Positions 11,257 through 59,746 of a stretch of DNA of 64,000 bases are shown here, one piece after another (the first letter of the stretch is position 1; the number at the start of each line of letters is the position of its first letter). This stretch comes from Candidatus Aceula meridiana. GTDB taxonomy: Bacteria; Omnitrophota; Gorgyraeia; Zapsychrales; Aceulaceae. Location of the stretch: the NCBI GenBank assembly GCA_030765185.1, contig JAVCDE010000024.1:379538-443537 (forward strand). The letters run 5' to 3'. The notes beneath the pieces were generated by a model. That model was not told the origin of the DNA. It saw nothing but the letters and a program-made list of their open reading frames with translations, and did not search any database. A program made the position numbers and the translations under genes.

Positions 11257-11280
11257 AAATTTTAAATCTCTAAAGATTTC

Positions 11281-11781: not shown

Positions 11782-11829
11782 CTTTGAACCTCCTTACAAT
11801 TGTTAAATAGAATTCTGCGAATACTTAAA

Positions 11830-14295: not shown

Positions 14296-14310
14296 GAGGC
14301 TCTTCCTTTC

Positions 14311-24369: not shown

Positions 24370-24416
24370 GTAAAAAGTAAAGGGAAGAAAACTTGAGCCT
24401 AATTTAAATAGCTCAA
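24370..24416 (-). terminator. Putative intrinsic terminator of the giant gene (stem UUGAGC/GCUCAA spanning its last codons and stop, followed by GUUUUCUUCCCUUUACUUUUU)
   Basis: Read from the sequence. The 6-bp stem has a 12-nt loop and a U-rich tract on the minus-strand RNA. Confidence 0.35.
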
Positions 24417-27400
24417 CTCTTTGGGTTCATCGGCCTCTATCTCCTGCGCCCACTCACTATCATCAAAATCTTCCTTATTAAGGCCCATTAAAGTCCAAAT
24501 ATTCGTGACAGGCGTAATATTAATAATAACAGGCACAAAACCTTCAATATTGTTAAAGTCTATGCCTTGGAGTTCTACCGGCAGTTCAAACTCAACCCCT
24601 TCGCCTTGGATTTGAAGATCAAGGGCTTGCGGGTTGAAGTCGATACCACCAGGGGCCGAGGAAAGTTCAGCAGCAGACAAATCCCGTAAAGGCTTATTTG
24701 CAATCTCAATAAGTGCATCAAGATATCTTTCGGTAATCAGCCTATCAATGACAACATATGGCCTACCCTTCAAAACACCATCTTTATCCTTAACCGATAT
24801 TTCTGCAGAATGCCATTGGATTAAATTTAATATCCTTCTCTGAAACTGATTCGAGTCTTCGAAATCTAATGCAAAAGTTGTATATGGAAATAAATAATCA
24901 TCCCTAGTCATCAGCTGTTGTTCCTTCAATCCTGAATCATAATCTACGAAGATCGTCACAGGAACACTTGGTTCGTTATCTTCTATACGATATCCATAAT
25001 GAAAAGTTTCCGAAACCGCCTTAATAAACTTCTTAAAAAATAGTTCAGCAACTTCCTTCTCAGTTGAGATAGACCCCTCAAATAAAGGAACTCTTTTCTT
25101 TGATTCCTCATTATGTTTCTTTTTTATTAATTCCAAAAACCCTGGCTTAATAATCATTGCATGCCCTGTATGTCTGAATTCTGTCATTCTCGCTACACGC
25201 TCTGCTGCCAAAACATGGATGGCAATCGTCTTATCTAATATGCGCGCCAACTCCAATATTTTTGCAACCATTCTCTCCTCAAACATTTTATCCGCACTTA
25301 CTTCCACACCTGAAACGGGAGAGAAATAATCCACGGTTGGCTGCTTCCCTACTAAATCAAAATTCATACCCAGGCTTTCCAAATATTTCTTCGCCTCAAA
25401 AGTCGCCTTTTGCACAGAAGTAGCTGCTATACCGCCAGATTTTCTCACCTCCGCAGATACCGTTGGGCTAGTCTTGCCCTTGACCCAAATTTTACATACA
25501 TCCGGCAAAAGAAAAGCTTTTGCATCATCGCCTGTCCTAGTCGGAGGGCCGGAAGGTCCAAGGTTCACATTCAAAATATCAAAAAATCCTAATTCTTTTT
25601 CCTGCGGCCCATGCAGCAGATCTACCTGCCGCAACATCACGACAGAATCACCCTCGTTGATAAGAACTTCTTCTATAATCTTTTGAACGATCTGCAAAGA
25701 TTTCTCGTATTGATTGTCTCCGGGCCAAACGACAAAATTCAAAAGCCCCTTAAACAAAAGCACCTTCTTGCCGGATATAATTTTTAATTCTGCAATATAG
25801 CTCTCTGCATCATCAATAAAATTCTTAGCCGTTCTATCAACCAGATTAACTCTCTCTGCCAAAGGCACACCAAGGTTGCGGCTAATCAACTCTTCTCCTC
25901 GGTCAAAATCATTTTGATCCTTGTTTATAGGAAAAGTCTTTCTAAAAATCGCTGGGATAGAATCGGCACCGCTGACCGGATAAATATAAGTAGTATTCTC
26001 TCCGAAATAATCCGATAAAGCTTTCATGAGATCAAAATATGCCTGTACTTCTATTTTTTCTTTTTCCGTCTTACCTCTCTCCGGTTTTCCTAAGACATTT
26101 TTTACGAGATTAATCGCATCCCGATATTTTTGTAGCGCTGCATTTACATACTCAATATTTCCCTTGATGCCTAATGGCTCGTTCTCATTCATCAGCGAGA
26201 AATTGGTTCCTTCCGAATCCGTTGCTGAACCCTCCGCCCCCTGCGCAGGCGACGAAATACTTTCCCCCTGCACGAAGTCGCTCTTTTCTCCTCCAAATGG
26301 CGAAGGCCTTATATCATTTGTATTTTCACCACTTGAACTGTTTTGAGGAAGATCAGGCTCATCCTTAACAAATCTTCTTAAATATTCAAATGCAATATGA
26401 ATAGCAGATAATTGATCATGAGCTTCTTTATACTCAGAATTCTCTCCGGTTTTCATCTCATCTAAACCTAATCTTGTCTGTATTTGATCGGGCGACCTTT
26501 CTTCTTTATACATTTCCTTTACTTTTGCGTTTCTTGTTCTTTTTAAACCTTTTAAATTTCCAGGTATTTCGTCTAGACCCAAAACAGCCAATGAATTTTG
26601 ATACATTTCATTATCCTTTGTGAAGCCATCACTATCATATCCTGACTGTTCACCTTGAGAATATGATCCTCTGGAATAATCTCTAACCGACTCATACACT
26701 TCATCCATAAAAACATTTAAATTTCTTAAATCTGTAATGCGTTCTTTATTTCTTCGCATAACATCACCTAAGGCTCTATAAAAATGATCCTGCTGACCAT
26801 CAAACCGATGTTCAAGAGAAACAAAAGCATTAACAATAACCTCTAAACTTGATAGATCCGTAATTAAGTGCTGCAAAACCATTACTCCATCGCTGAGAAG
26901 ATCATAATTTTTTCTATCTCTGTATCGCAGCCTTAGAAAAGCATCTAACAATATTTTACTCATAGTCCTATAGTCATCCTCAGAATCCAAAATAGCAACA
27001 ATATCACTTGCGCCATGTTCAATAATCTTCCAAGCTTCATCGCCTGCATCAACACTAGTTTCAACAATAGCTGGCCAGAATTGCCTAAAACGATCTTCTC
27101 CTAATCTTCTAGACAAAACACTTAAACTGCGAAAAAGTATTTCTTCGCTATCTGTAGCAGATTCTCTCATTCGAGCTAATTCAGAACCTACACTCAGCAC
27201 ATCCTCTGAGCTATTAATTAAAGAAACTGCTGCTTTAAGTCCTCCAGAAAAAGCATTAAATGTCTTACCCGAGCCAAGCCTTTGAGCTAATAACAATAAT
27301 TGGTCTCCTACAGATTTAAGAGATTCCTCGTCTTGAACTAAGTGTTTCAGATTTCCGATTCCATAATTTAATATATGAGGTGCGTATTCGCCTGCCTTAT

Positions 27401-30400
27401 TAACTAAATCTTTTGTAGAAGCCCAAGACTGACGAAAGGCTTCGTCTCCAAGTATTTTTCTCAAATTTCCCAATCCCCGAAAAACGTCACTTCTTTCATC
27501 TTCAGATATCTGTAGTCCAATAAGCTCATCAGCCATAGGAACAATTCCATCCAAGCTATCGATTAGGATGTTAACCACTTCAAATCCAGTTCCTAAAATC
27601 TGCCAATCACCCTTTTGATGAACTTTAATTAGTTCTTCACCAGCTTTTTTTAATTCAGGAATTGTTGTTATCAAATTCTTAATACTCTCAAGTGTCGCAC
27701 TAATCGTCCATTCATCATGTTGACCAAAAATATTTTGTAATTCTCTCATCACCGATTTTAAATCCTCATTAGTATTTACTAAAGGTCCCATTGCATTAAG
27801 AGTTTTAAATGCATTAAACCCTGCTGTCTCTTTATACTGTAAAAATTCATCTATCAATCTATTAAATCCATCAAAATCGTCATACAATGTTTTATATGTT
27901 TCAGCAACACTAAATAACCAACTTGCATTGTCTCCAAATCTTTTCTCGCTCTCAATGAGAGCCTGTCCGCGAACTCTTAATTCTTCTGGTGAATTTACGA
28001 ATGGACTTACAAGAGCGACCCCCCCAAGCAATGTTGGTGATTCATTAAAATGATCACTTGGTTCCATTGAATTATTCGCAAGCTCTAGCAGAACAGCCCC
28101 ATATTGACGCACATCTTCTGGCGTGTGAAGTTTATCCGTAATTCCTGCCAAAGCCGTCATTATTGCCGTTATTTTTTTAACCCCAGCTTCTTCGCCTAAT
28201 TTTACAATCTCAGGCCAAATAGTTTTTAGAGTCTCGCTATCAATACCTTTAAGCAATGTTGGTAAATTTCTTCTAAATAGAGGCTGAGCGCCTCGCCCAG
28301 CTGTATCAGATAATCGCACATAATCTCTCGCAATCTTTCCTGCATCATCAGGATCTTCGTACAACGCCTTAGCGTCTAAAAATGCATTGAAAGAGTCTGC
28401 TCGGGAGTCTGTTCGGGAATTTTTCAAATGTTTCCATGCCTCAATTAGTTCAGGCAGCAAAAGATCTAGCTGTGCAGACGGAAATTCCTCAATCATTCTT
28501 TTAAGCAAATGTCTGAAGAAATATTTACTTTCGCCGCCCACCCAGTCTACTTCCGACCAATCATAAATATCATTAAACATATCAATGCTATGACGTTCAA
28601 CGAGACGATCAAAATCTTTCTTATATTCTGCTATCAATTCCTGAAAATGAGGATTATTGCTAATAAAGTCCCTCTTTCTTCGTTCATTAGAAAGCAAAAG
28701 CGACTGCGCGGGGGTGTGGGCGGAAGAGGAAATCTTTTTTCCATCTTCGGAATAAATAGGCTCAATTATTTTTTCCTCTTCCTTCGCGCTATCAGTAACC
28801 TCGTTCCCCGCCCCGCTCGACGCATGAGCGTCATCAGGATTATAAACTTTTGCTTGAGCATCCTGCCCATCATCAATCGTGCTAGAAGAACCACTTCCAC
28901 TCTGCGCAAGGCGCGCTAAAGCACGATAGAGCGTACTATCGTTACCTTTTAAAGTTATAACTTTCTGAGTAGAATTCTCCCAAAGATGTTGAAATAAAGA
29001 ATTGTATAATTGAGGTCTACTATTTCTTAAAAATTCACACATTTCTTTGAGAGTTTTAGCTTTCGTGGAAGAAACAATAATGTCCGGAACAAAAACCTTG
29101 AAAACTTCTTTAACATGATTATTTGAGCATATTTCGAGAAAGTATTCTTTTGCCTTCTCACCATTCTTAAAATCTCCATCCTTCTCAACAAAGGTTATGT
29201 ACTTGCTAATTAAACTATCTGCAGTTGTTTTCCCACGAACTCCCGTTGGCACGATCGTACTATTTACCCCTACACTAATACTACTATGACTAAGGTCCAA
29301 TACTTCACCTATCATACGTGTTGTAATCTTTCTATCGTATTCATTCTCAAGCCGCTCCGTTAAATATGCGGCAAAACCCCGGGCAAACCAAAAGGTAACC
29401 CCCTTTTCCTTTTCAACGAAATCAATAACATATTGTGCAAACCCTCCTTCCTTTAAGAATTCTTTAATCTCTTCAACCAACTGTGCCTGCGAACGAGAAT
29501 TCTTCACTTGCTCAGTATTCTCCCAATCTTGAGTCAAACTTTTCCTTGGAATATAGGTAATAAACTCTTCTTTCGCTGTAATCCCAATACAGTCTGCAAG
29601 GGCACCTGCAATACTTTTTCCTTGCAGTGTGTCGCACTTTTCAATATTACTAATTCTTTTCTTTCCATTTGTTACTTTAATATTTTTTAAATCTTCCTGT
29701 CCGGCAGATACTGCCTTCCAAAAATCTTCTTGCGACTGAAATCTCTGAAGGCGTATTTGCCTGATCATATCTCCAATCGTAAAACCGTCTTCTTTTCTCA
29801 CATCTTCGAAAAGCTCATCAGCGCTTTTTTCCTTAACGATGCCAAACATTAAAAGCCCTAAAGAACGTGCGAGATCTTCATTAAAAGGAGCGGCCCAATC
29901 TGCAATTTTCTTGATTTCCTGAGGCGCACGAGGAAATAATATCCCTCCTTCTCGCCACAAGCGGATTGTCTCCTGGTGTCTGTCCAAACTCTTACTAATC
30001 AAAAAATTTAACATGCCCGTTTTCTTACAGAGTTCATCAAAGACTTCAGAAAATATATTATGCTCTTTAAAATAATCAGGATCTTCTAAAATAGTATTTT
30101 GTTTTCGCTCAATAAGGTCACGAATAAATTCTTCATCTAAAGGAGACAATATTTTCGATATCTCTTGCTCAAGAGAGTCTTCCCCAGTAAGAAGTTTTTG
30201 TTTCTTGTCAACTCGATAAGCCTCCCACGTGTGAGATTTCATCTGAGGATGAGAGGGCTCGCTACCTTTGGCCAAGGGTTGACCTTGAATTTTATAACCA
30301 GCCAATTCAATAATTTCTTTTGTTCTTTTTATTTCATTCTCAAAAAAGACCTTTCCTCTAGAATCCCCATAATCATTATAATAACCCAAAACAATAACAC

Positions 30401-33400
30401 CTTCATCCTCTAACTCTAACGCGTTCATCGCATTCTGAAAAATCTTAACCCTTGTCTTTTTCAAAATAGACGGATCTGATAAAATAGACATCATCACTAG
30501 CACCTGGGCAGGTTTTTTTATTATTTCAGCCTGATCAAAACTTGCTTTCCCATCAGGCACAACAGTCAAGTTATTGTTTTTTACCTTATTAGCCCATTCC
30601 TGCCATAATCCATTGATCCGCTTATCTGGCTCATAAAGGGACACCTTAGCGCCTGCTTCCAAAAACATCTCTTCCCAAAATATCATATTCGCAAATTCTT
30701 CTTCAGCAATAAATCCCATATTGACATATAGTTTGTTATGTAAGTAATCCTCTCCCGGCCCAACTACAATAACTTCTTGATCTTTAAGATCGGGCAAAGA
30801 CTCTACAAAAGAATGGGCCTGGGCAATGCTCTTGGGTTCTATAGGAGTAGCACTTGACTGTTTTTCATTTCTGCCTATTGCCGCAAGATCTTCTTTCTTT
30901 TTCGGTATTTCCATATTATTAACAACAGCGCTAAAAGAACCGGGCTTCTGCGCGAGATCGGGGGCAAAAGAAGATATTTTATCGCCGGAGGTCAAAGTCG
31001 AGGAACTGCTCACCGTCAATCCTTCTTCAAAACCTCGGGCCAGGTCTTCAGGATTCTCCGAATAACTATTAACAATGGTAATAATATTCTTAATATTGGA
31101 AGGAACGCGGTCAAGGTCACTGTAGCGACTGGAAGAGATGTCCGAAAGTCTTTCCACCTCGACTAAGCTTAATTCTCGTTCTTTTATTTTTCGCTTTCTT
31201 TTTTCTTCATTAACAGGAACGACTCTCACCAGCAAAAGGCGGTCAGGATCCTTCCAGTCATAGGAAACTGGTTGGCGTACTGTCTCTAAAATGACGACAT
31301 CGATCCTATTAATGAGGTTCTCCAAGGCTTCGAAATATTCTACGCCATCCCGCTCATCAAATTCATCATAATATTTTATTCCATAATTCACCAACTCTTT
31401 TCTGGCCGCTTGTTTCTCGGAATCACCTTCGCCATCCTTCCAGTCAAAATCAGTAATCCCTTCTTCCTTCAGCAATGTTTCAATAATGGCCCTTATGGCT
31501 ATGGTCTTTCCTGCGCCTGGCGGACCGTTGACGCAAATGACAGGATACTTCTTCCCTTTTTCGCTTCGTTTGAGGCCAAGCCATCGGCCGATTTCCTTCA
31601 TCTTATCCGCTGTCGTGACTAAAGCGCTATCCGCCCCCTGCGCAGGGTCGGCAAACTGTCCCTCTTCTTTTTTCTTTTGCTTAATAAGCTTTAACTGTTC
31701 AAGAGTAGGAATCGTCCCTTCTAAAGCTTCAATATTAACATGAGAAGGATTAAAATATTCAATAAACCGATCTTCTGCCCAAGAATCAACAACATAAGAT
31801 CTAATTTTAAGACCAGGATATTTTAAGCTTAAAGACTCAACTGTTTTTTCATATATTTCAGAGCCAAAACCCTTTCGTTGAATGTTGCTTTCTGAAAACC
31901 TTGAATTATCACCACGACCTACAGAAATCTCGTCCCTCATAAATTCTTTCCTTTTCCTGTCATAATCAATTCTTAAATATAATATATTATCATTTAAACT
32001 CTTGCTGGATGAAGAATCTACAATAAAATGAGATAGTCCTTCTTCAAGATTTTCAATTTCATCAAGAATCACAATATGGCTTGTCTTGTGATCTCTAATG
32101 ATTTCCGCAAACAAAAAGGTCAAATTATTATTTTTCTTAGCTTCTTCTAATTTCTGTCTCACCTTTTTAAAAACATCCTCTAAGCTACCTACGGCATTAA
32201 TGACAGCCGGCTCTTTATTATTATTTAACCGAGTGATTTCTTTTAAAAAATCTGTTTTCTGCACTAAGCTCTCATAAGTAAACAATTCTGGGTTATCTGT
32301 CCTCTGCTCTGGGGCGGAGGCGACAGAACTTGCAACGCTCCATACTGCCTCACGATCTTCTTCAACAACCATGACCTTTAAATTAACAGCTTTTCCTCCT
32401 TCAGGGTAATTTACGCGCTGATCAACAATCATAGCGCGAGGATTTTCTATCTTAATTTTTGCTGCTCTGTTCCTTGCCTTTTGCATTATTTCTTCCTTGT
32501 TAGAATCATAAACAGAAGCGCTTTTCTCAAATAAAACTTTCCCAGGAAATTGCGACTCAACCCTTACTAATTCTTTCGAACCTTCCTCCAAGATGGCAAC
32601 TTTCGTTCCAGGATAATCCTGAGCTATCTTTTGAGCTTCTCGAATTATTTTGGCTCTATTTCTCCTTTTTGAAATAATACCCTCATATAAAATAGCGTTT
32701 TTCAGATATCGATATGATTTCTTTTCAACAATCTGGATTAAAGGAATTTCACTTGTTTTTAGATTAAAATAAAGATGTTTATTAATATTAGAAATTCGAC
32801 CCTCAAAACCCATTTCATAAAAGAATGAAAAATCCAAAACATTGTTGGCCTCCAAGAAATCCCTCGAATTTCTTTTGCAGAGGGCGAGGGCAAAAGAAAC
32901 CAAAGCCCTTCCTAATCCTCGATAGTTCTTCTCTTCAACCCTAATTGCAACACGAACCTCTTTACGATTTAATCCTACTTGATCAGCGCGCAAATAATAA
33001 TGCCCTACTTCTTTATCCTCTCGAATCACTGCGAAACGATAACTGCCAGGGGTAGTGTCCTCCTTTAGCTGAAATTTAAATTCTTCCCCATCATTCGATT
33101 GAAGAACAATCTCTCCTTTTTCGACAAGCTTATCAATCAAACTTTCTGGATTATAAACCTTTATTGAACTTGCCTGAATGCTGCTATCGGAAGGGCTCTT
33201 CCTAGGATTATCTCTTTCGTCAAACCTCCTAAGTCCAATCTTGGTAAAAATATTGTTATACCCCTCTACAATTTTCTTCCGTAATGACGAAGACGCCTCC
33301 TGCGCGGGGTCAGAAATAGCAGACGAAACAACCAAATCGCCTAAGTCATCTACGATGCCGTCTGCATGAGGGTCCATCTTTTCTGCCTTGCCTTCGTTGC

Positions 33401-36400
33401 CTTCGATTAATCCAACAACATAAATCTTTTCTTTTTGCTCCTCTCTTTGCGTAAGAATGTTTCTAAATTCTTTAACATTCTTAGCTGAATCGTCAACGAT
33501 AATAACATTTTCATTAGGATCAATTTCATCAATCAACTTCTTAAAGACTTCGACTTTATTCTTGCTCGTTCTTGCAAAATGGATATCTTTAAAACTTTCC
33601 ATTAATCCAAGCTTCTCTAGAATAGGTTGCTTATCTTCCTTCTTAGCTCCTGAAAGAACCACAAGGGTTGCCCCTTGCGCTATCTTATCTTTTAAGAATT
33701 CAGCAACGCCCGGCTTAAACAGTATTCTCTCAACTTGATCCTTAGGGCGGGTCAAAACCTTATTAACTGCATCGTTTCTTGACTGCTGATAAAACTTATA
33801 AAGTTTGTCCACGAAGACATCTATATCAGTATCTGACGCAAACGAAAACTTATCCGCAAATTTAGATGTAATCAGTTGTTTAAAAATTGGCCCTGTAGAT
33901 TGGCCTGGGGGTTTTTGGAACTGATGACCCTCTTGCAGATCTGCTTCTTTGGGGGTAAACCCTTCAGGGTCTTTAACACCATTTTTTATCATGGCGTACA
34001 CGAAGGCAAAGGGAGCTTGGTCAAACTTTTCAACATCTATGATGACTCCGGCCAAATCGAGAATATAATAATTAACATCTTTTAAATCTAGCTGTCTAAA
34101 GGCTTCCTTTTTCTTTCTGCTCTCAAAAATACTTGTGCCAGGTTTGACTGTTGTTTCCACAGCAATATCCGGAGACCCTGGTAAAAAGAAATAGCCATCA
34201 ACGATTGGCTTTTCCAAATCTTTTTTTGCTTCTTTCTTTTTAGAAGAACTCGACGCCTTTTGTGCAACGATAACTTTTTCTAAGGATATGCTAAAATTCT
34301 CAAACCCTAAGCCTTTTAGGATGACGAAACTTTTTTCAGCATAAGATAAGGCATCTCCTGCAAGATACCCATTCGGTTTTAAAACACGGCCCATCTCTTT
34401 AAAAATTGCTTTAGGATTTTGTTCAGCTAAAAAATACGCATCAATTTCTGAGCCAAACATGACCGTTGAAACAGACGCATCTTTAAAAATACTTTTTAAA
34501 TTATGCGGCTTGTTTCCAATAAGATGAAATCGTCTTTTGATGTCTTCGCTCATCGCGCCAAAGCTTGTCTTAAGGCTTTCGAAGTAGCTCGGATTCCACT
34601 CTAAAACATAAATCTCTGCGCTCGGGAATTCCCTGGCAAGTCTAAAAAATTGATTTGCCCCTCTTTTAGCCCCAACAAAAAGAACTTTTCCTTTTTCTTG
34701 ACGAGTTTTATATCCTTTTTGCCCTAAAGCCTTTACCATGTCTCCAATCACGCGAACATTTTCATTATCATCAAGGATGTCGTCATATTCAAAAAGACGA
34801 AATTCTGGCATAGGTGCCGGTCCGTTCATAGCAACATTGCTAGCACGATTCAAATATGGGCGCACATATCCAAGTTCTTCGACCTTAGCTTTAAGTTCTT
34901 TTTCAGTCTGCCGGTCATTTAAGTCTACTAATCGATAATTGAGGACACCGCTCAAATTATTTTTTAAGATTGAAAATTGATCAACAAGGCCTGGCAAAAA
35001 TTTTAAAAGTTCTTTTCGGCTAATACCGGCATTGAGCAAAACAGTCTCAGAAAAAAATTTAGGAAAAGCAAAGCCCGAATCAATAATAGGAGTTGGTGAC
35101 TGCGTAGAAAAATGCTGACGGGATTTTCGCTCACCCTCATTAAGCTGTTGCTCACTGTGGACCACGCTAAAAACGTCGGGGCTATCAATTCTTGTTCTGT
35201 CCCAAACTCCGGCATAAGTCATATATTTTAATTTTTTCGGATTAAACACGCCCTCGTCAATCAAATCATAAGTCGCAGAAATTACGATGGCTTCGGTATT
35301 TGAATGGGCACGGTAATCGGCAAAGCCTTCACCATTAGAAATAATAAGATCTGGTTTTCGTTTGCGTAAAATATTTTTAACTCTTTCGATGTCTTCTTCT
35401 CCTGCGGCTCCACCCCATCCTTCTTCTGAATAAAAAGTCGAATCCATAGGGTCATGAATTTTTTCGTAAGGAATTCCCAAGCTCATCATGGCAGTTTTGT
35501 TTTCAAAAATTCTAATAGCTGCTTTAATATGCCCTATCGACTCAACATCCCGTGCACCCCAGCGAGCTTTTTCGTTAAAAGATTCTAAAAGAGCATCTAT
35601 AAGATGCAGTAAATGTTGTCGGTTCTCTTGAATAGAATGCGGATGAAAAATCTCTAAAAAGAGCGCCTGAGCGCGCAGGTCTTTTTCTTTTTCCGTCATG
35701 TGTGTCCAAGGGTCAAAATCTGACGGGCTTGTATGAAGATTTTGACTTTCTAAGGTCGGGATAAGCTCTTGCGCCACTTGACTTGTAGTTCTTTTGCTCA
35801 CAGCATCGAGCTTTGCCTTATCCCATCTCTTAATACGCCTCAAAACTTGAGCAACATAAAGATCATCAACAGCCGTAGTACCTTTGGCCGTATAATGAAT
35901 CTCAATGTCGTATCCTTGCTTTGCCAAAACGCGAATATTCTCCCTTTTTGCAAAATAATCATCATCGAGATGCGGGTTAATAATATCTACTTTTTTATCT
36001 CTGTCGCCGGGCTCCCAGCCAAGTTTCTCAATAATGCCATTAGGGGTAATCGTATTGTCTCGGATAGCTTGAGCAATTTCTTTCTTTAGCTCTTCCCAAG
36101 CACCATACTTTTTAAGAGATTTTAAATTGTACTCGACAATCTTGCGGACAATCGGTGGCGCACCAAAAAGTTTGGCAGCATCACTTTCTAGAAATTCAAA
36201 CACATCTTTCTGTTTAAAATTAAGGAGAGTTTTTTCCGGGTTATTCTTTTTTACATCATCGACAAGATATACAAAAAATTTCCTAATCATTTTAGGTGTC
36301 CACTCGTCAATCAAATCAAAATGCCAAAAATGACGCCTGAGCCGCAAGTTTTCTTCAGATCCACCTGCGACTAAATAACTGCCGCGTTGATCGCGCACCG

Positions 36401-38750
36401 CCTGTAGAGGATAAACAACCTTGCGCTCTTTTCCTGACCCTTTAAAGACACGGCCTTCTTCGATACCATAATGCATAGAGTTACGTTTGCTAGCAGTTGT
36501 GGCAAACACGATATGTTTTGGATTCTTTTTACGATTTAAAAGTTCTTTAAAACCATAGGTCATGAACCCATAGCCACGTTTGACCATGTTGCGATAACCG
36601 CCATTTTCCTTGGCATGTCCGGCTAAAACATAGTGGCCAGGAACACCTAAAAATGCATCTTGAATGAGGCGTATCCCCTCCTCTAAAAATGCCATATGGC
36701 CTTTACCTTCATAAGAAGGCCCTACTCCCCAGATCACCATATTCGGTCCGTTACGCAGTTTTAGCTTTCCAGACATCTGCTTGGTTTGCTTTTTCATGGC
36801 ATTCCAAAAGCGATACTGGGCATCTGTTTCGCTTAATTTACCGGATAAAAATTCTTCAATTTTGCTGCCGTGGGTATCAATATCTTTTAAAAGACTTTCA
36901 TATTCTTTGCTTGTCATCTTGCGAAGCTTTTTGCCATCAGCAACAAGATCGCCGTAAAAGAAATAACGCTGAGTTTCAGGAACCTGCAAGAGATCAAGCA
37001 TATTGTTTAAAATATTGGGGAAAGAGTGATAGTCTGTGCGCTTTTGAGGAGCAAGGCCGTCTAAGGCAAAGGCCTCAACACGATTCATATCTGGCTTGTG
37101 ACCAAAATCGATGTTGGGTTTGTTTAAAAATTCTTGCGTTTTTGCTTTATCCCAAGTATTGAGAATATCAGCGAGTAGACGGTACGACACCCAAGGCGTA
37201 TCGCCTGTTGCAAAGTTGACTACAAATTTCTCACCCGATTTAGCAGTGCGCTCCCAAGCTTGGTACTCAGCAATAAATTCTTCAACAAATTTCTCAGCTA
37301 CGGCCACGATATCCTTTAGGATGTGGGCATCCATAGTCTCAGATTGATTAACCGTAAAATTATAAATCGCCTGGGCTGGATTTTGATAATATCCGAGCTC
37401 TCTAAGCTTTTCAAAAGCTGTGCGGACCTCTTGCTCTGATGAGTCTTCCTTAATAGAGGTGATGATTTTCTTTGCCTGCTTTTTGGCTTGTACTGCGCTA
37501 GAGACAAAAAAACTTGCCGCACTCTTATCTCCAGCTGACACAAAAACAAGATCAATATCCTGAAAGCTTGAGGATGTTACCCATTGCGGCAGAGGTGCGG
37601 ATATGGTTGAAGTAAAACTTAAAACTTGGGTAATATTCCAATTGATTCCACCGGAAAAATACTTGCGTGGAACATTCTTTTGCGTATATTTATCATATTC
37701 AACTTTAATATAATCGCAAACACCTTTTTTAAATGACTCGATATACTGAGAATAAATTTCTTCAGTGGCGCCTTCTTTAGCTAAATCAACGCCTTTAACT
37801 TTGCTTTTATCCGCGTACGCTTTTGTTAAAAATGCGTTTTTAAGTTTTGTTTTAAACCATGTTGCCAAAATCATGGAGTGATAGATTTGACGAAGCTGGG
37901 AAAAATTACGCCCGAAGTTAACTTCATGTTCAAGCTCAGGAATAATAATTTCACGGACAATATCAGAAGTAAGCGTAGAACTTTTAGCATTGTTAGCGCT
38001 TAACGTAGAGCGTTTAGCGTTTAGATTATTTATTTCTTCTATGCGTTGCGCACTATCCGCTATCCGCTGTTCGCTATGCGCTAGATAGTCTTCCTCCAAC
38101 ATTACTTTTAGTTTGCTCTCAGCAACAAACGCCCTATCCCCGTTCTCGTACACAACTGCTTTTTCAGGTACAATCCATACCTTACTAAAAGTATCGACCG
38201 GAATGTCCGTTGTCCCATATTCTTCGTAGGCCCTTTCATAAACTCTTTCCCAGAACTTTTTGCCCATCTCATCTTCAGGATAAATTAAGGAAGCTGTGAC
38301 TTGTTTTAACAAATAATCTTGGGCAAGCATGTCACGGCCCATTTCGGTTACGCCTAAAGACTCTGGCACAATACGGCCTTTTTCATAAGGCGAAAGGTTG
38401 ACCCAGAGATCATCCTCAGGAAGAGTTAAAGATGCTAAGAAGTAACGTACAAGTTTTTCGCTCTCTCCTTTTAATTCCGCCGTTTCAAGCCGAGATTGGC
38501 CTTTATCCAGAATAAAATTAAACTTCAATGGCTCTTTGGGATAGACTTGAATTCCTCTTAAAATCGCCGGAGTAAATGAGGGGCTTAAAGGCACTGTAGC
38601 GCCAGGGATAGGAAGGCCTAAAACATTGGAGGCTATTGCCTTAGGAAGATACTGGGGAAGGCATACGTTCTCTGTAAAGGCCACTAAAATAAGTATAGCA
38701 ATAGCCTTAAAAACAGATCGAAATCTATATCTGTTAATAATAAGATTCAT
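24399..38750 (-). CDS. Giant 4,783-aa multidomain protein with an N-terminal signal anchor, a string of enzyme-like domains, a helical tandem-repeat array and a large unassigned C-terminal region
   Basis: Single uninterrupted ORF of 14,352 nt in the provided six-frame track. N-terminus MNLIINRYRFRSVFKAIAILILVAFTENVCLP. Domain motifs are listed as separate features below. The antisense ORFs inside it are short shadow ORFs. Confidence 0.8.
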   Translation of the reverse strand: MNLIINRYRFRSVFKAIAILILVAFTENVCLPQYLPKAIASNVLGLPIPGATVPLSPSFTPAILRGIQVYPKEPLKFNFILDKGQSRLETAELKGESEKLVRYFLASLTLPEDDLWVNLSPYEKGRIVPESLGVTEMGRDMLAQDYLLKQVTASLIYPEDEMGKKFWERVYERAYEEYGTTDIPVDTFSKVWIVPEKAVVYENGDRAFVAESKLKVMLEEDYLAHSEQRIADSAQRIEEINNLNAKRSTLSANNAKSSTLTSDIVREIIIPELEHEVNFGRNFSQLRQIYHSMILATWFKTKLKNAFLTKAYADKSKVKGVDLAKEGATEEIYSQYIESFKKGVCDYIKVEYDKYTQKNVPRKYFSGGINWNITQVLSFTSTISAPLPQWVTSSSFQDIDLVFVSAGDKSAASFFVSSAVQAKKQAKKIITSIKEDSSEQEVRTAFEKLRELGYYQNPAQAIYNFTVNQSETMDAHILKDIVAVAEKFVEEFIAEYQAWERTAKSGEKFVVNFATGDTPWVSYRLLADILNTWDKAKTQEFLNKPNIDFGHKPDMNRVEAFALDGLAPQKRTDYHSFPNILNNMLDLLQVPETQRYFFYGDLVADGKKLRKMTSKEYESLLKDIDTHGSKIEEFLSGKLSETDAQYRFWNAMKKQTKQMSGKLKLRNGPNMVIWGVGPSYEGKGHMAFLEEGIRLIQDAFLGVPGHYVLAGHAKENGGYRNMVKRGYGFMTYGFKELLNRKKNPKHIVFATTASKRNSMHYGIEEGRVFKGSGKERKVVYPLQAVRDQRGSYLVAGGSEENLRLRRHFWHFDLIDEWTPKMIRKFFVYLVDDVKKNNPEKTLLNFKQKDVFEFLESDAAKLFGAPPIVRKIVEYNLKSLKKYGAWEELKKEIAQAIRDNTITPNGIIEKLGWEPGDRDKKVDIINPHLDDDYFAKRENIRVLAKQGYDIEIHYTAKGTTAVDDLYVAQVLRRIKRWDKAKLDAVSKRTTSQVAQELIPTLESQNLHTSPSDFDPWTHMTEKEKDLRAQALFLEIFHPHSIQENRQHLLHLIDALLESFNEKARWGARDVESIGHIKAAIRIFENKTAMMSLGIPYEKIHDPMDSTFYSEEGWGGAAGEEDIERVKNILRKRKPDLIISNGEGFADYRAHSNTEAIVISATYDLIDEGVFNPKKLKYMTYAGVWDRTRIDSPDVFSVVHSEQQLNEGERKSRQHFSTQSPTPIIDSGFAFPKFFSETVLLNAGISRKELLKFLPGLVDQFSILKNNLSGVLNYRLVDLNDRQTEKELKAKVEELGYVRPYLNRASNVAMNGPAPMPEFRLFEYDDILDDNENVRVIGDMVKALGQKGYKTRQEKGKVLFVGAKRGANQFFRLAREFPSAEIYVLEWNPSYFESLKTSFGAMSEDIKRRFHLIGNKPHNLKSIFKDASVSTVMFGSEIDAYFLAEQNPKAIFKEMGRVLKPNGYLAGDALSYAEKSFVILKGLGFENFSISLEKVIVAQKASSSSKKKEAKKDLEKPIVDGYFFLPGSPDIAVETTVKPGTSIFESRKKKEAFRQLDLKDVNYYILDLAGVIIDVEKFDQAPFAFVYAMIKNGVKDPEGFTPKEADLQEGHQFQKPPGQSTGPIFKQLITSKFADKFSFASDTDIDVFVDKLYKFYQQSRNDAVNKVLTRPKDQVERILFKPGVAEFLKDKIAQGATLVVLSGAKKEDKQPILEKLGLMESFKDIHFARTSKNKVEVFKKLIDEIDPNENVIIVDDSAKNVKEFRNILTQREEQKEKIYVVGLIEGNEGKAEKMDPHADGIVDDLGDLVVSSAISDPAQEASSSLRKKIVEGYNNIFTKIGLRRFDERDNPRKSPSDSSIQASSIKVYNPESLIDKLVEKGEIVLQSNDGEEFKFQLKEDTTPGSYRFAVIREDKEVGHYYLRADQVGLNRKEVRVAIRVEEKNYRGLGRALVSFALALCKRNSRDFLEANNVLDFSFFYEMGFEGRISNINKHLYFNLKTSEIPLIQIVEKKSYRYLKNAILYEGIISKRRNRAKIIREAQKIAQDYPGTKVAILEEGSKELVRVESQFPGKVLFEKSASVYDSNKEEIMQKARNRAAKIKIENPRAMIVDQRVNYPEGGKAVNLKVMVVEEDREAVWSVASSVASAPEQRTDNPELFTYESLVQKTDFLKEITRLNNNKEPAVINAVGSLEDVFKKVRQKLEEAKKNNNLTFLFAEIIRDHKTSHIVILDEIENLEEGLSHFIVDSSSSKSLNDNILYLRIDYDRKRKEFMRDEISVGRGDNSRFSESNIQRKGFGSEIYEKTVESLSLKYPGLKIRSYVVDSWAEDRFIEYFNPSHVNIEALEGTIPTLEQLKLIKQKKKEEGQFADPAQGADSALVTTADKMKEIGRWLGLKRSEKGKKYPVICVNGPPGAGKTIAIRAIIETLLKEEGITDFDWKDGEGDSEKQAARKELVNYGIKYYDEFDERDGVEYFEALENLINRIDVVILETVRQPVSYDWKDPDRLLLVRVVPVNEEKRKRKIKERELSLVEVERLSDISSSRYSDLDRVPSNIKNIITIVNSYSENPEDLARGFEEGLTVSSSSTLTSGDKISSFAPDLAQKPGSFSAVVNNMEIPKKKEDLAAIGRNEKQSSATPIEPKSIAQAHSFVESLPDLKDQEVIVVGPGEDYLHNKLYVNMGFIAEEEFANMIFWEEMFLEAGAKVSLYEPDKRINGLWQEWANKVKNNNLTVVPDGKASFDQAEIIKKPAQVLVMMSILSDPSILKKTRVKIFQNAMNALELEDEGVIVLGYYNDYGDSRGKVFFENEIKRTKEIIELAGYKIQGQPLAKGSEPSHPQMKSHTWEAYRVDKKQKLLTGEDSLEQEISKILSPLDEEFIRDLIERKQNTILEDPDYFKEHNIFSEVFDELCKKTGMLNFLISKSLDRHQETIRLWREGGILFPRAPQEIKKIADWAAPFNEDLARSLGLLMFGIVKEKSADELFEDVRKEDGFTIGDMIRQIRLQRFQSQEDFWKAVSAGQEDLKNIKVTNGKKRISNIEKCDTLQGKSIAGALADCIGITAKEEFITYIPRKSLTQDWENTEQVKNSRSQAQLVEEIKEFLKEGGFAQYVIDFVEKEKGVTFWFARGFAAYLTERLENEYDRKITTRMIGEVLDLSHSSISVGVNSTIVPTGVRGKTTADSLISKYITFVEKDGDFKNGEKAKEYFLEICSNNHVKEVFKVFVPDIIVSSTKAKTLKEMCEFLRNSRPQLYNSLFQHLWENSTQKVITLKGNDSTLYRALARLAQSGSGSSSTIDDGQDAQAKVYNPDDAHASSGAGNEVTDSAKEEEKIIEPIYSEDGKKISSSAHTPAQSLLLSNERRKRDFISNNPHFQELIAEYKKDFDRLVERHSIDMFNDIYDWSEVDWVGGESKYFFRHLLKRMIEEFPSAQLDLLLPELIEAWKHLKNSRTDSRADSFNAFLDAKALYEDPDDAGKIARDYVRLSDTAGRGAQPLFRRNLPTLLKGIDSETLKTIWPEIVKLGEEAGVKKITAIMTALAGITDKLHTPEDVRQYGAVLLELANNSMEPSDHFNESPTLLGGVALVSPFVNSPEELRVRGQALIESEKRFGDNASWLFSVAETYKTLYDDFDGFNRLIDEFLQYKETAGFNAFKTLNAMGPLVNTNEDLKSVMRELQNIFGQHDEWTISATLESIKNLITTIPELKKAGEELIKVHQKGDWQILGTGFEVVNILIDSLDGIVPMADELIGLQISEDERSDVFRGLGNLRKILGDEAFRQSWASTKDLVNKAGEYAPHILNYGIGNLKHLVQDEESLKSVGDQLLLLAQRLGSGKTFNAFSGGLKAAVSLINSSEDVLSVGSELARMRESATDSEEILFRSLSVLSRRLGEDRFRQFWPAIVETSVDAGDEAWKIIEHGASDIVAILDSEDDYRTMSKILLDAFLRLRYRDRKNYDLLSDGVMVLQHLITDLSSLEVIVNAFVSLEHRFDGQQDHFYRALGDVMRRNKERITDLRNLNVFMDEVYESVRDYSRGSYSQGEQSGYDSDGFTKDNEMYQNSLAVLGLDEIPGNLKGLKRTRNAKVKEMYKEERSPDQIQTRLGLDEMKTGENSEYKEAHDQLSAIHIAFEYLRRFVKDEPDLPQNSSSGENTNDIRPSPFGGEKSDFVQGESISSPAQGAEGSATDSEGTNFSLMNENEPLGIKGNIEYVNAALQKYRDAINLVKNVLGKPERGKTEKEKIEVQAYFDLMKALSDYFGENTTYIYPVSGADSIPAIFRKTFPINKDQNDFDRGEELISRNLGVPLAERVNLVDRTAKNFIDDAESYIAELKIISGKKVLLFKGLLNFVVWPGDNQYEKSLQIVQKIIEEVLINEGDSVVMLRQVDLLHGPQEKELGFFDILNVNLGPSGPPTRTGDDAKAFLLPDVCKIWVKGKTSPTVSAEVRKSGGIAATSVQKATFEAKKYLESLGMNFDLVGKQPTVDYFSPVSGVEVSADKMFEERMVAKILELARILDKTIAIHVLAAERVARMTEFRHTGHAMIIKPGFLELIKKKHNEESKKRVPLFEGSISTEKEVAELFFKKFIKAVSETFHYGYRIEDNEPSVPVTIFVDYDSGLKEQQLMTRDDYLFPYTTFALDFEDSNQFQRRILNLIQWHSAEISVKDKDGVLKGRPYVVIDRLITERYLDALIEIANKPLRDLSAAELSSAPGGIDFNPQALDLQIQGEGVEFELPVELQGIDFNNIEGFVPVIINITPVTNIWTLMGLNKEDFDDSEWAQEIEADEPKELSYLN
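26650..28450 (-). repeat. Giant protein: array of >=5 degenerate ~95-aa alpha-helical repeats (approx aa 3440-4030)
   Basis: Recurring signature around a conserved Trp. Examples: TIWPEIVKLGEEAG, DNASWLFSVAETYK, HDEWTISATLESIK, FRQSWASTKDLVNKAGEYA and FRQFWPAIVETSVDAGDEA. Confidence 0.5.
30350..30786 (-). other. Giant protein: second Rossmann/methyltransferase-like domain (approx aa 2655-2800)
   Basis: EVIVVGPGEDYL (G-x-G), an acidic strand end VSLYEPD, and ...ELEDEGVIVLGYY. Confidence 0.3.
31190..31566 (-). other. Giant protein: P-loop NTPase, kinase-like (approx aa 2395-2520)
   Basis: Walker A KKYPVICVNGPPGAGKTIAIRAI and a Walker B-like RIDVVILET. Confidence 0.55.
31700..32030 (-). other. 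Giant protein: second GNAT-like segment (approx aa 2240-2350)
   Basis: NIQRKGFGSEIYEKTVESL resembles GNAT motif A. The match is weaker than for the first GNAT. Confidence 0.25.
32750..33140 (-). other. Giant protein: GNAT N-acetyltransferase domain (approx aa 1870-2000)
   Basis: Motif A EEKNYRGLGRALVSFALALC (R-x-x-G-x-G/A) with flanking beta-strand pattern. Confidence 0.55.
33410..34075 (-). other. Giant protein: HAD-like hydrolase fold with degenerate motif I (approx aa 1560-1780)
   Basis: YYILDLAGVIID is motif I-like but not DxD. LVVLSGAKKED is motif II. The Lys in FARTSKNK and the IIVDDSAKNV motif IV are also present. Confidence 0.35.
34300..34850 (-). other. Giant protein: class I SAM-dependent methyltransferase domain (approx aa 1300-1480)
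   Basis: Motif I VLFVGAKRGANQF and an acidic beta-2 end at IYVLEWNPS. Post-II motif RVLKPNGYLAGD, the canonical LLKPGG-type. Confidence 0.6.
36440..37270 (-). other. Giant protein: NagB/Pgl-like sugar-phosphate isomerase-deaminase domain (approx aa 495-770)
   Basis: Three collinear matches to GlcN-6-P deaminase / 6-phosphogluconolactonase signatures. VVNFATGDTPW matches LGLPTGGTP. FALDGLAPQKRTDYHSF matches FNMDEYVGL..ESY.SF. VIWGVGPSYEGKGHMAFLEEG matches LFMGGVGNDGHIAFNEP. Confidence 0.5.
38661..38750 (-). other. Giant protein: N-terminal signal peptide / signal-anchor (aa 1-30)
   Basis: Positively charged n-region (RYRFR) followed by the hydrophobic stretch AIAILILVAF. Confidence 0.6.
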
Positions 38751-56662: not shown

Positions 56663-56701
56663 AATAAAAAAAACCCGCCGTTGCTACAGTGGCGGGCTTT
56701 T
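56663..56701 (-). terminator. Rho-independent terminator downstream of the spy/cpxP-like gene (CCCGCC-N11-GGCGGG followed by U8 on the minus strand; bidirectional shape)
   Basis: Read from the sequence: aaaaaaaacccgccgttgctacagtggcgggctttt. Confidence 0.75.
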
Positions 56702-56732: not shown

Positions 56733-57224
56733 TTAAGGGCGGTCGCTTTCCTCCTCTTCAGCTCCTGAGAATTTACGACGGCCTCCTTTTTTTCCTTTTC
56801 TATCATGACGAGCCTTTTTCATTTTCTCGGAAAACTGAACATATTGTTCAGGCGTTAAAACTGAACGCAGATAGGAAACCCCATCAATGCGCAAATCCGA
56901 AAGCTGTCCCTTAAAAGCTTGAATTTCTCCCGAAATCTGGCGTGCCTGCGCCTCATCAAAATTAGGATCCTGCAACATAGCCTTCAGTTCTTCTTTCTTC
57001 TGCTTTACAGCACTTTGAATTTCTTTCCGCTTCTGCTTTGTTTGCTGACGGTGCTCTTTAAGCGCTTGCTGCTGCTCAGGTGTGAGATTAAGACTCTGGA
57101 TAAAATTCTCATGATGCTTCCCCTTGTTTTTTTCGTGACTCCCTTCCTTCTCTCCCCATCCAGCATAAGCTAGCTGAGAAAAAAGGAACAATCCTAAAAC
57201 AGTTAGTAGTGCAACTTTTTTCAT
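56733..57224 (-). CDS. Periplasmic Spy/CpxP/ZraP-family stress chaperone
   Basis: Signal peptide and two LTPEQ motifs (LNLTPEQQQALKEH, LTPEQYVQF) in a helical K/Q-rich protein. Confidence 0.6.
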   Translation of the reverse strand: MKKVALLTVLGLFLFSQLAYAGWGEKEGSHEKNKGKHHENFIQSLNLTPEQQQALKEHRQQTKQKRKEIQSAVKQKKEELKAMLQDPNFDEAQARQISGEIQAFKGQLSDLRIDGVSYLRSVLTPEQYVQFSEKMKKARHDRKGKKGGRRKFSGAEEEESDRP

Positions 57225-57247
57225 AATCCATTTCCTCCTTTCACCCT

Positions 57248-57276
57248 CTTAGACAACGAGAGTAGCCAAAAAGTTC
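57248..57276 (-). promoter_or_regulatory. SigmaE-type (ECF) promoter GGAACTT-N16-GTCTAA upstream of the spy/cpxP-like gene
   Basis: The minus-strand reading is AGGAACTTTTTGGCTACTCTCGTTGTCTAAGAG. It is the same motif as the promoter in front of the ECF sigma gene. Confidence 0.55.
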
Positions 57277-57283
57277 CTTATGT

Positions 57284-57760
57284 TTACAAAAAATATTCAT
57301 CAACCCAAGTATCGCTTAGCCCTACGTCAGTTTGATCGTCAGAATAAACAAGGTATTCAAACTGTTCATTCAAATAATCATTAGCTGCCGTTTGTGTTTG
57401 CCATGCAGGAATTTTAACAACCGCAACAAGCAAAAGAATAGTTGCAGCAACCGTCGAAAGAGCAAAAACCGGCTTGTGTGCAGCAAAGGTACCCGACAAA
57501 GCATCCCATGCTTTTTGGATAAGACTTTCCTGCCGATGTTTTTCAATAGCACCCTCAATCTTATTCCATAAATGGTCAGGAGCTTTTATAGGCTGCACAC
57601 TCTCGAAAGGATTTTTCAAAACCTCCTTAGCCTCTGCGGCAAATTCTCGGCAAGCCGTGCATTGGGTTAAATGCTCCTCAATACTTTGCTTTTGCTCTTT
57701 GGAAACCTGATCGTCTAAATAATCCGTTAAAACAAGCTCTTTAATTTGTTTACACTTCAT
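57284..57760 (-). CDS. Membrane-spanning anti-sigma factor with N-terminal zinc-binding anti-sigma domain
   Basis: HLTQCTACREF (H-x3-C-x2-C) and a central TM helix (ALSTVAATILLLVAVV). The start overlaps the ECF sigma stop by 11 nt. Confidence 0.6.
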   Translation of the reverse strand: MKCKQIKELVLTDYLDDQVSKEQKQSIEEHLTQCTACREFAAEAKEVLKNPFESVQPIKAPDHLWNKIEGAIEKHRQESLIQKAWDALSGTFAAHKPVFALSTVAATILLLVAVVKIPAWQTQTAANDYLNEQFEYLVYSDDQTDVGLSDTWVDEYFL

Positions 57761-58298
57761 AAGGCACGACCTCCTTTCTTAAACTTAAGAGTTTTTCGCG
57801 GGCACGCTTTAAACGCGTGCGTACCGTATTGATATTAATTTTTAAAGATTGCGCGATTTCTTCGTAGCTTAATCCTTCAATGTTTCGCAGAATCATACAT
57901 ATCTTTTGATCATCATTTAAAACAGAAAGCAGCTTGTTCACGCGATCTTGAATTTCTTCATCCGGCGAAGATGGCAACGGCGAAGCAAATTTCTCAATTC
58001 CAACTTCATCAAGAGAAACCGGTGTTTTGAGATGTTTTCTTTTTTGATAATTAATCGTCGTGTTAATTGTGATGCGGTAAATCCATGTTTTCAAAGAGGA
58101 ACGCCGTTCAAAATTCTTTAAACTCTTATGAACCTTCAAAAAAACATCCTGCGTAATCTCCTCGGCATCCTCGTTGTTCCCGGACATCCGCCATGAAATG
58201 CTGTAGACAAAATTACAAAAGGTACGATAGATCTCCTCAAAGGCATATAAATCGCCCTGGGCGGCCTTGGTAATTGTCTCAAGCGCAACAGGCTTCAT
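57750..58298 (-). CDS. ECF (group IV) RNA polymerase sigma factor
   Basis: Region 2 (AFEEIYRTF...ITQDVFLKVHK...FERRSSLKTWIYRITIN) and region 4 (LSYEEIAQSLKININTVRTRLKRAREKL). GGAGG RBS 7 nt upstream. Confidence 0.8.
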   Translation of the reverse strand: MKPVALETITKAAQGDLYAFEEIYRTFCNFVYSISWRMSGNNEDAEEITQDVFLKVHKSLKNFERRSSLKTWIYRITINTTINYQKRKHLKTPVSLDEVGIEKFASPLPSSPDEEIQDRVNKLLSVLNDDQKICMILRNIEGLSYEEIAQSLKININTVRTRLKRAREKLLSLRKEVVPYEV

Positions 58299-58315
58299 TT
58301 CCTACCTCCACTCTT

Positions 58316-58344
58316 TTAGACATCTTAAAAAGTAAAAAAGTTTC
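58316..58344 (-). promoter_or_regulatory. SigmaE-type autoregulatory promoter GAAACTT-N16-GTCTAA upstream of the ECF sigma / anti-sigma operon
   Basis: The minus-strand reading is TGAAACTTTTTTACTTTTTAAGATGTCTAAAAGAGTGGAGGTAGGAAATG. Confidence 0.55.
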
Positions 58345-58358: not shown

Positions 58359-58778
58359 TTATTGTCCTAAGAGCCAATTTTCAATCTTGGCCTTAATCTG
58401 GTCGCGGATTATCCTTATATTATTAAGTTTTTCTTGGTCTAAGCCTTGCAACTGGGATGGATCTTGAAAGCCCCAATGCAACCTTTGGGCACTACCGGGA
58501 AAGGTTGGACACTTTTCTGCGCTGGCCTCATCACAGACAGTGATGACATAGTCATACTGCTTTCCATTCTTGAGAATGTCAGAAACACTTTGCGTTTTTT
58601 TGCCGGCAATATCAACACCCAGGTCTTTTAAGGCCTCAACAACCAAAGGATTTAGTTCCCCAGGCTCAAGCCCTGCGCTTGCCACTTCAAATTTATCCGG
58701 AGATAGTAAACGTAAAATTTCCTCAGCCATCTGACTTCGAGCAGAATTGTGGATACAGATAAAAAGAACTTTCTTCAT
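58359..58778 (-). CDS. arsC: Arsenate reductase, LMW-PTP / thioredoxin-coupled family
   Basis: P-loop [17 protein letters not shown] (CX5R) and downstream Cys residues ([11 protein letters not shown]). Confidence 0.8.
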
Positions 58779-59746
58779 TTCAGAGGGGCCATTAAAATAT
58801 TCTGCAGAAAATTAAAAAGATATCCTGTAAAAATAATTCCTAAGGTTGTGATGCCGAAAAAAATGGCAATCAGCTTCAATTTCATTGCTCGCCTCAGGAT
58901 GACAGCCTCAGGAAAGCTTAAAGCGCTTATGGCCATCATAAAAGCCAACGCAGTTCCTAAAGGTACCCCCTTGCGGAATAATGCAACCGCAATCGGCACA
59001 ATAGCCGCGCAGCTGCCATACATCGGCACCCCTAAAGCCGTTGCCAACGGCACAGAGAAAATTCCTGTCTTGTTAATAACTGAGAGGATAACCTCTCTTG
59101 GGACATAATTGTGAATAACAGCGCCAATGCCAACACCAACAAGAATCCAAATCCATAATTTTTTTAAAATGGAAATTGACTCATCTAAACCAAATCTAAC
59201 TCTTTCGCGAATGCTGTTATACGTTGGCTGTTTCTCCTCACCGCCCTCATTTCCTATAATATCTTTTTCGAGATACCTTTCTAAATTCATTTTTCCTGCA
59301 AGTATTCCCACCAAGACTCCGATAGTCATTCCGCTTGCAACATAAAGTACTGTTATTTTCCAACCAAAAAAACCAAGCATCAAAACTACCAAGTATTCAT
59401 TAATTAAGGGCGATGTAATTAAGAAAGAAAACATAACTCCGACGGGGATTCCAATGCGCACAAAACTTAAAAAGATTGGGATTGAGGAGCACGAGCAAAA
59501 CGGCGTGAGTGCTCCAAAAAGCGCCGCGTAAAAATTAGAAAAAATTTTCTGCTGGGTAAGCCATCGTTTTAACCTTTGCTGATCTAAAAAACTCCGAAAA
59601 AATCCCAATACAGATATCATCACAAAAAGCAAAAGGAAAATTTTTACCGTATCATACAAAAAGAAATGGATGGCTCCGGTTAGATGAGACTCCGGGTTGA
59701 GCTTTAGTAACGAATAAACAAACCAATCAATAGACCCTAACAACAT
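58775..59746 (-). CDS. arsP: ArsP-type organoarsenical efflux permease (DUF318/UPF0718 family)
   Basis: An eight-TM permease with the diagnostic [10 protein letters not shown] motif. It is translationally coupled to arsC by a 4-nt overlap. Confidence 0.65.

Follow-up and report, generated by a model that had tools for sequence, protein, structure and literature searches.

A three-gene ECF sigma factor unit

We analyzed a 64-kb stretch of DNA (hereafter the window, to which all coordinates refer) from the genome of Candidatus Aceula meridiana, a member of the phylum Omnitrophota. Three genes on its minus strand encode, in order of transcription, a sigma factor of the extracytoplasmic function (ECF) type, an anti-sigma factor bound to the membrane and a secreted protein of the Spy/CpxP kind. 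Two closely similar promoter motifs lie in front of the first and the third of these genes. From the features described below, we consider it highly likely that the locus forms a self-contained, ECF281-type signalling unit built on an ECF sigma factor.

The sigma gene (57750..58298) encodes a protein of 182 amino acids (aa) with matches to the Pfam domains Sigma70_r2 (57.7 bits) and Sigma70_r4_2 (56.7 bits). Sigma factor regions 2 and 4 are the only ones present, the length falls in the range expected for ECF (group 4) proteins (approximately 180 to 200 aa), and the score with TIGR02937 (107.8 bits) passes the cut-off of 42.9; no NCBIfam equivalog model passes. The anti-sigma gene (57284..57760) overlaps the sigma gene by 11 nucleotides (nt) and encodes 158 aa with a zf-HC2 match of 31.6 bits (Pfam cut-off, 22.2). 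Its product consists of an N-terminal zinc-finger domain carrying HxxxCxxC, a single transmembrane (TM) helix at approximately residues 97 to 117, as judged by hydropathy, and a tail of roughly 40 aa that faces outward and terminates in DEYFL.

The third gene (56733..57224) encodes a secreted protein of 163 aa that Pfam assigns to the LTXXQ/Metal_resist (Spy/CpxP/ZraP/CnrX) family. Both of its domain matches, PF13801 Metal_resist (55.2 bits; cut-off, 29.2) and PF07813 LTXXQ (39.1 bits), pass the curated cut-offs, and the protein carries an N-terminal hydrophobic signal peptide, the LTPEQ motif twice (residues 47 and 123) and a C terminus that is basic. Its closest solved structure is Escherichia coli Spy (3oeo, E = 3.7e-5), with CnrX matched weakly (E = 0.13); none of the NCBIfam equivalogs for Spy, CpxP and ZraP reaches its cut-off. 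By sequence, the protein belongs to the Spy/CpxP/ZraP family, with a putative chaperone, metal-binding or sensor-inhibiting activity.

The unit is closed by a predicted intrinsic terminator on the same strand (56664..56698), in which a GC-rich stem of 7 bp encloses a loop of 11 nt and is followed by U8. A consensus terminator scan overlooked this site, whose loop is longer than 8 nt, and it was recovered by folding: the segment from 56650 to 56735 (minus strand) folds with -19.2 kcal/mol (z = -2.6). The consensus scan found no terminator-like site between the three genes.

Two matching promoter motifs

The motif upstream of the sigma/anti-sigma operon, designated P1 (58344..58316, minus strand), is composed of a -35 element GAAACTT (58344..58338), a 16-nt spacer TTTTACTTTTTAAGAT and a -10 element GTCTAA (58321..58316), the end of which lies 17 nt from the sigma ATG. 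The second motif, P2 (57277..57249, minus strand), begins 6 nt past the stop codon of the anti-sigma gene. It has the -35 element GGAACTT (57277..57271), a 16-nt spacer TTTGGCTACTCTCGTT and the -10 element GTCTAA (57254..57249), and its -10 element ends 24 nt short of the LTXXQ start codon (ATG). If the discriminator measures 5/6 nt, as in sigmaE promoters of E. coli (PMC1312014), transcription is predicted to start at about 58309-58310 from P1 and 57242-57243 from P2, in both cases following a T-G pyrimidine-purine step. The predicted leaders, of about 11 nt and 18 nt, both contain GGAGG, and that of P1 would have the sigma gene's Shine-Dalgarno sequence at its extreme 5' end. These lengths are at the short end of normal, and orthologous loci are similar, with 14 to 23 nt between the -10 element and the ATG.

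A preliminary description of this DNA, made by a model from the letters and open reading frames (ORFs), had read the three genes as a sigma/anti-sigma/Spy-like module, a reading that the Pfam calls bear out. The two motifs that it reported, including their identical 16-nt spacing, proved correct to the base. It had also placed them at the expected distance from the start codons; this agrees with the orthologues, although the leaders predicted here are short.

The strength of these matches depends on how they are scored. A loose search allowing up to two mismatches returned four matches in the window against 1.97 expected, which is not significant by itself, and a stricter score and a matrix derived from orthologues were therefore needed. 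When at least 12 of the 13 motif positions had to match, with a spacer of 15 to 17 nt, three sites were seen, whereas 200 Markov simulations predict 0.235 per window, both strands included. A position weight matrix (PWM) was then built from 22 sites of other genomes, none of them from the window. It gave 30.9 bits for P1 and 30.8 bits for P2; the next best score in the 64 kb was 6.6 bits, a gap of 24 bits, and the maximum of 50 shuffles was 16.8 bits. From their conservation in relatives and from the covariation at -34, both described below, the two motifs are very probably promoters read by the sigma factor encoded at the locus.

Three other matches were rejected as promoters. The third 12/13 site, at 28351 on the plus strand, is antisense inside an ORF of 4,783 aa and scores 4.2 bits with the PWM. 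Of the two 11/13 sites, that at 59171 (plus strand) lies within an ArsP gene on the wrong strand, and that at 60552 (minus strand) has no credible gene downstream.

Conservation of genes and motifs among relatives

More than 2,000 database proteins match the sigma factor at E ≤ 1e-10. Scanning one genome per species yielded 16 loci (L001 to L016) of 42 to 54% identity, from Omnitrophota and from metagenome-assembled genomes labelled Planctomycetia, Nitrospiraceae, Endomicrobiales, Desantisbacteria and Pseudomonadota. The succession of a sigma gene, an HxxxCxxC anti-sigma gene and an LTxxQ gene was found in all 16, each with PF13801 at position +2. A scan of metagenomes contributed about five close relatives, its other loci being distant ECFs of other groups. 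The same triple is present in these close metagenome loci (L081 to L085) and in the closest relative, a syntenic locus of 77% identity (L161). All relatives of roughly 45% identity or more, from several phyla, thus have it. At about 40% identity (L086 to L088), anti-sigmas are longer and the LTxxQ gene is absent, so the triple marks a distinct group.

The motif is conserved along with the genes. At the P1 position, 19 of 25 loci have at least 11 of 13 matches, the majority being exactly GGAACTT-N16-GTCTAA. At the P2 position, at least 12 of 13 matches were found in 11 of 20 loci, and loci in which the LTXXQ gene directly adjoins or overlaps the anti-sigma gene lack the motif. Of 593 background windows of 200 nt from these loci, 4 reached 12/13. 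In L161, both boxes are retained at P1 and at P2 while the spacers diverge. More distant ECF genes, from Acidobacteriota, Elusimicrobia and Methylomirabilota, are also preceded by GGAAC...GTCTA-like sites.

In some relatives, the motif is found in front of further genes. In L001 (motif at 2215, gene at 2279..2908) and L008 (2354 and 2404..2949), it precedes a gene for a secreted His/Gly/Tyr-rich DUF6515 protein, the next gene upstream of sigma; in these two loci, sigma has no motif of its own, and the operon seems to begin one gene earlier. A few kilobases downstream of the module, the motif precedes genes for TolC-like outer-membrane efflux proteins (Pfam OEP) in L001 (6143; gene, 6210..6533) and L002 (5781; gene, 5852..6553). 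The TolC-like genes are candidates for further regulon members in these relatives. Taken with the DUF6515 genes, they indicate that the regulon can exceed the triple.

Sigma region 4 covaries with the base at -34

The contacts of E. coli RpoE with its promoters provide a guide to how the motif may be read. In RpoE, R171 reads -31, S172 reads -34 and N84 reads -13/-12 (Todor 2020, PMC7776599), and R176 reads -35 (Lane & Darst 2006, PMC1540707). The equivalents of R171, R176 and N84 are conserved in the window sigma as R159, R164 and N82, and S172 is replaced by T160. According to Lane & Darst (2006, PMC1540707), S172 pairs with G at -34 and T172 pairs with A.

The pattern across the loci fits this rule. 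Sigma factors with TVRSR have GGAAC only, and all six GAAAC sites, including the window P1 with its GAAACTT, belong to sigma factors with TVRTR. The three loci with GTAACTT (L003, L004 and L009) have [A/V]VRSR, that is, A or V in place of the T before VRSR. Covariation of region 4 with the -34 base is what direct recognition predicts and argues that the sigma factor itself reads the motif. The pairing of TVRTR with GAAAC also explains the single "mismatch" of P1, GAAACTT instead of GGAACTT. As a series, these loci are a clean natural example of the rule that ties sigma region 4 to the base at -34.

Probable placement in ECF281

Group ECF281 has a predicted promoter of GGAACTT-Xn-GTCTAA (Casas-Pastor et al. 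2021, NAR, PMC7826278; supplement bioRxiv 10.1101/2019.12.11.873521). A one-helix zinc-finger anti-sigma is encoded at +1 and, in subgroup ECF281s2, a heavy-metal resistance protein (PF13801) at +2; the hosts are mostly Firmicutes, Actinobacteria and Deinococcus, with members also in Proteobacteria, Elusimicrobia and Armatimonadetes (PMC7826278; bioRxiv 10.1101/2019.12.11.873521). No member has been studied experimentally, and a response to heavy metals is the role that has been guessed (bioRxiv 10.1101/2019.12.11.873521).

The window locus shares with ECF281s2 the type of anti-sigma at +1 (one helix, zf-HC2), PF13801 at +2 and the motif upstream of the sigma gene. In BLASTP comparisons, its sigma factor scores 118 and 110 bits against the Syntrophomonas wolfei exemplars of ECF281s3 and ECF281s4, as opposed to 86 bits against E. 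coli RpoE (86 to 87 for ECF02/ECF248). Two features found here are missing from the published description of the group: an internal promoter before the +2 gene and a conserved tail of the anti-sigma. The architecture and the promoter motif were already predicted in print for ECF281, and the phylum Omnitrophota is new for the group. Our search of the literature on LTXXQ proteins with ECF sigmas, and on sigma factors of Omnitrophota, returned nothing specific.

How the unit may work

The following scheme would account for the arrangement. Family knowledge suggests that, when no signal is present, the single-pass zinc-finger anti-sigma retains the sigma factor at the membrane. A periplasmic signal would release the sigma factor, which with RNA polymerase would read GGAACTT-N16-GTCTAA. 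Transcription from P1 would yield more sigma and more anti-sigma, translationally coupled through the 11-nt overlap, which amounts to positive autoregulation with a built-in reset. Because no terminator follows the anti-sigma gene, P1 transcripts probably continue into the Spy-like gene. P2 would be a second sigma-dependent start for that gene, so that the Spy-like protein could exceed sigma and anti-sigma in amount. Transcription would end at the terminator at 56664..56698. We infer the transcription starts, the mode of inhibition and release, and the nature of the inducing signal, which may be periplasmic protein-folding stress or metal/metalloid stress.

The Spy-like protein may be an effector only, or it may also feed back on the anti-sigma. 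The anti-sigma tail (57284..57400) bears on this question. It is conserved across phyla (L001 to L016, L081 to L085 and L161), and an alignment of 21 orthologues shows EQxEY after the TM helix and GTxIEEYFL-COOH at the C terminus; the window version of the latter is DTWVDEYFL. The tail may, on this evidence, be a docking site, for which the co-conserved Spy-like protein is a possible partner, or a protease-recognition site. E. coli offers a model for feedback. There, an LTXXQ periplasmic protein (CpxP or Spy) is induced by the stress pathway of its own locus (Cpx or Bae), and CpxP feeds back on its own sensor; the regulator, however, is a two-component system in E. coli and an ECF sigma here, and feedback through an anti-sigma is hypothetical. 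By analogy, the Spy-like protein could dock on the tail and stabilize the anti-sigma, as CpxP does on CpxA, until unfolded proteins or metals titrate it off, with P2 setting the gain of this negative feedback independently of the dosage of sigma and anti-sigma. We offer this as a speculative and rather unlikely proposal. If it were true, the result would be an ECF switch of three components, widespread in Omnitrophota, Planctomycetota, Nitrospirota, Elusimicrobiota and other phyla.

The nature of the signal is where an alternative has most to recommend it. The promoters could be just as described and the unit could still sense metals or metalloids in a CnrYXH-like way, with the PF13801 protein acting as a periplasmic sensor or co-regulator on the anti-sigma tail and with targets devoted to detoxification rather than to general envelope repair. 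In Cupriavidus metallidurans, CnrYXH (ECF291) likewise brings together an ECF sigma, an anti-sigma in the membrane of which very little reaches into the periplasm, and a PF13801-family protein of the periplasm; ECF281 and ECF291 both go back to the original group ECF20. Among Pfam families, the third gene matches PF13801 Metal_resist best, and it also matches CnrX weakly; heavy-metal response is the published guess for ECF281; and the short anti-sigma tail shows the strong conservation that a docking site would have. In relatives, the motif precedes TolC-like efflux genes and the His/Gly-rich secreted DUF6515 genes. P1 is immediately preceded, on its own strand, by genes for an ArsP-type permease and a low-molecular-weight phosphatase/ArsC-like arsenate reductase (58359..59746), an arrangement that is syntenic in L161 (2552..3940), and a functional link of these neighbours to metalloid stress is possible.

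Against such a sensor, the structural match to Spy is stronger than that to CnrX, and metal-binding residues in the PF13801 protein are putative at most. Gene order and anti-sigma type are unlike those of cnrYXH, in which cnrH is preceded by cnrY and cnrX, a CnrY-type anti-sigma takes the place of the zinc-finger protein, CnrX is membrane anchored and an efflux operon is adjacent. The arsenic-type neighbours are common only to a close relative and count as one observation, not two. The hints as to the signal point both ways: the name of PF13801, the ArsP and ArsC-like genes next door, and the efflux and His-rich products targeted in relatives tilt towards metals, and the better match to Spy tilts towards protein-folding stress. 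The preliminary description had labelled the module an envelope-stress one, which may or may not apply, the published guess for ECF281 being heavy-metal stress. On balance, a CnrYXH-like metal sensor is a possibility to be kept in mind, but a doubtful one.

Scope of the regulon and comparison with sigmaE

Returning to the ECF281-type unit, we compared it with the E. coli sigmaE (RpoE, ECF02) system, to whose promoters the preliminary description had likened the two motifs. That likeness is genuine. The E. coli consensus is GGAACTTTT / (T/C)GGTCAAAA, with a preferred GGAACTT-TCAAA spacer of 16 nt and a range of 15 to 19 (Rhodius 2006, PMC1312014). Both systems have a GGAACTT(TT) -35 element, a -10 element containing GTC and similar spacing; the specificity residues equivalent to R171, R176 and N84 are kept; and autoregulation with a co-transcribed anti-sigma, as predicted here, is a feature of sigmaE as well. 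The two differ in that the sigma factors are 31% identical, and the spacer measured from GGAACTT to TCAAA is 17 nt here versus the preferred 16. The anti-sigma is a zinc-finger protein and not RseA, and there is no RseB or RseC, the next gene being LTXXQ. The sigma factor fails the RpoE equivalog model TIGR02939 (94.7 versus a cut-off of 236). By these sequence features, it is not RpoE.

The preliminary description had gone further, regarding the motif as notable outside proteobacteria and implying an RpoE-type regulon, for which it proposed a scan upstream of envelope genes. The motif is already published for ECF281, and a sigmaE motif (GTCWAA with -35 AAC) has been shown experimentally in Fusobacterium nucleatum, with an RpoE-like regulon that includes bamA, skp and lpxD (PMC9546586). 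We ran the scan within the 64 kb. The window contains a minus-strand cluster (8103..15690) of dnaB, bamA (11830..14295), skp (11281..11781), lpxD, lpxC/fabZ and lpxA. No motif was found before any of these genes, the best matches in the 300 nt upstream of each being 8 to 9 of 13, which is the background mode. With the PWM, no other site in the window exceeds 6.6 bits, the bamA-lpxA cluster included. Within these 64 kb, the lack of a motif at this cluster points to what Todor et al. call a local regulator and not to a functional sigmaE. The regulon in the window is P1 and P2 only, as far as sequence matches define it, and the term "minimal regulon" used in the preliminary description holds for the 64 kb only, given the motifs before DUF6515 and TolC-like genes in relatives.

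These results bear directly on the possibility that the sigma factor is a functional counterpart of RpoE, that is, a global envelope-stress regulator of outer-membrane protein and lipopolysaccharide biogenesis of which two sites merely happened to be seen first. The nearness of the motif to the E. coli consensus and the Fusobacterium precedent speak for it, as does the fact that the scan covered 64 kb of the genome only. With background scores at the bamA-lpxA cluster in the 64 kb scanned, an anti-sigma of another kind and a sigma factor nearer to the ECF281 exemplars than to RpoE, we judge it very unlikely.

In the same cluster, a single ORF of 450 aa (8880..10232) joins LpxC to a FabA/FabZ-like dehydratase.

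Strength of the case for an ECF281-type unit

A number of points weigh against an autoregulated ECF281-type unit. The case for the promoters is drawn wholly from sequence, and the leader predicted for the sigma gene is only about 11 nt. K163 occupies the position of RpoE F175, which contacts -33. The covariation counts at -34 are small, and the loci are phylogenetically related. Placement in ECF281 was made by BLASTP as a proxy for the ECF Hub hidden Markov models and with exemplars of s3 and s4, not s2, and Omnitrophota are missing from the published list of taxa. There is no terminator between the arsC-like/ArsP genes and P1, and read-through from them into the sigma operon may contribute to its expression.

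The least probable reading, on which the two matches are not promoters of their own sigma factor and arose by chance, serve another regulator or are read by another ECF sigma of overlapping specificity, can draw on the sequence-based nature of the argument, on the insignificance of the two-mismatch search taken alone, on the similarity of -35 elements across ECF groups known since 2006 (PMC1540707) and on the GGAAC...GTCTA-like sites of distant ECF genes, but we find it highly improbable given a position conserved over many phyla while flanks and spacers diverge, the PWM gap, the covariation of the -34 base with region 4 of the cognate sigma, and the identity of the motif with that predicted for ECF281.

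An ECF281-type unit provides a well-supported regulatory annotation for an uncultured Omnitrophota genome, comprising two promoters, one operon and one terminator, and indicates that the motif published for ECF281 is valid in more phyla than were first sampled. It leaves knowledge of ECF promoter grammar unchanged and reveals no RpoE-type envelope regulon in Omnitrophota. In practice, the gain is a matrix, ready for use, with which to search for the regulon of a sigma group that has no experimentally studied member.

Other features of the window

Rfam returned no RNA family at or near the locus, its sole match in the window being a tRNA at 20746..20816. The G+C content is 39.9%, and gene orientation is strongly biased: of 52 ORFs with 140 aa or more, 47 are on the minus strand. 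One of these, at 24399..38750, is the ORF of 4,783 aa mentioned above; it encodes a giant protein of unassigned function, in which Pfam finds weak matches only, one segment resembling a HAD-like hydrolase and another a STAND/AAA NTPase.

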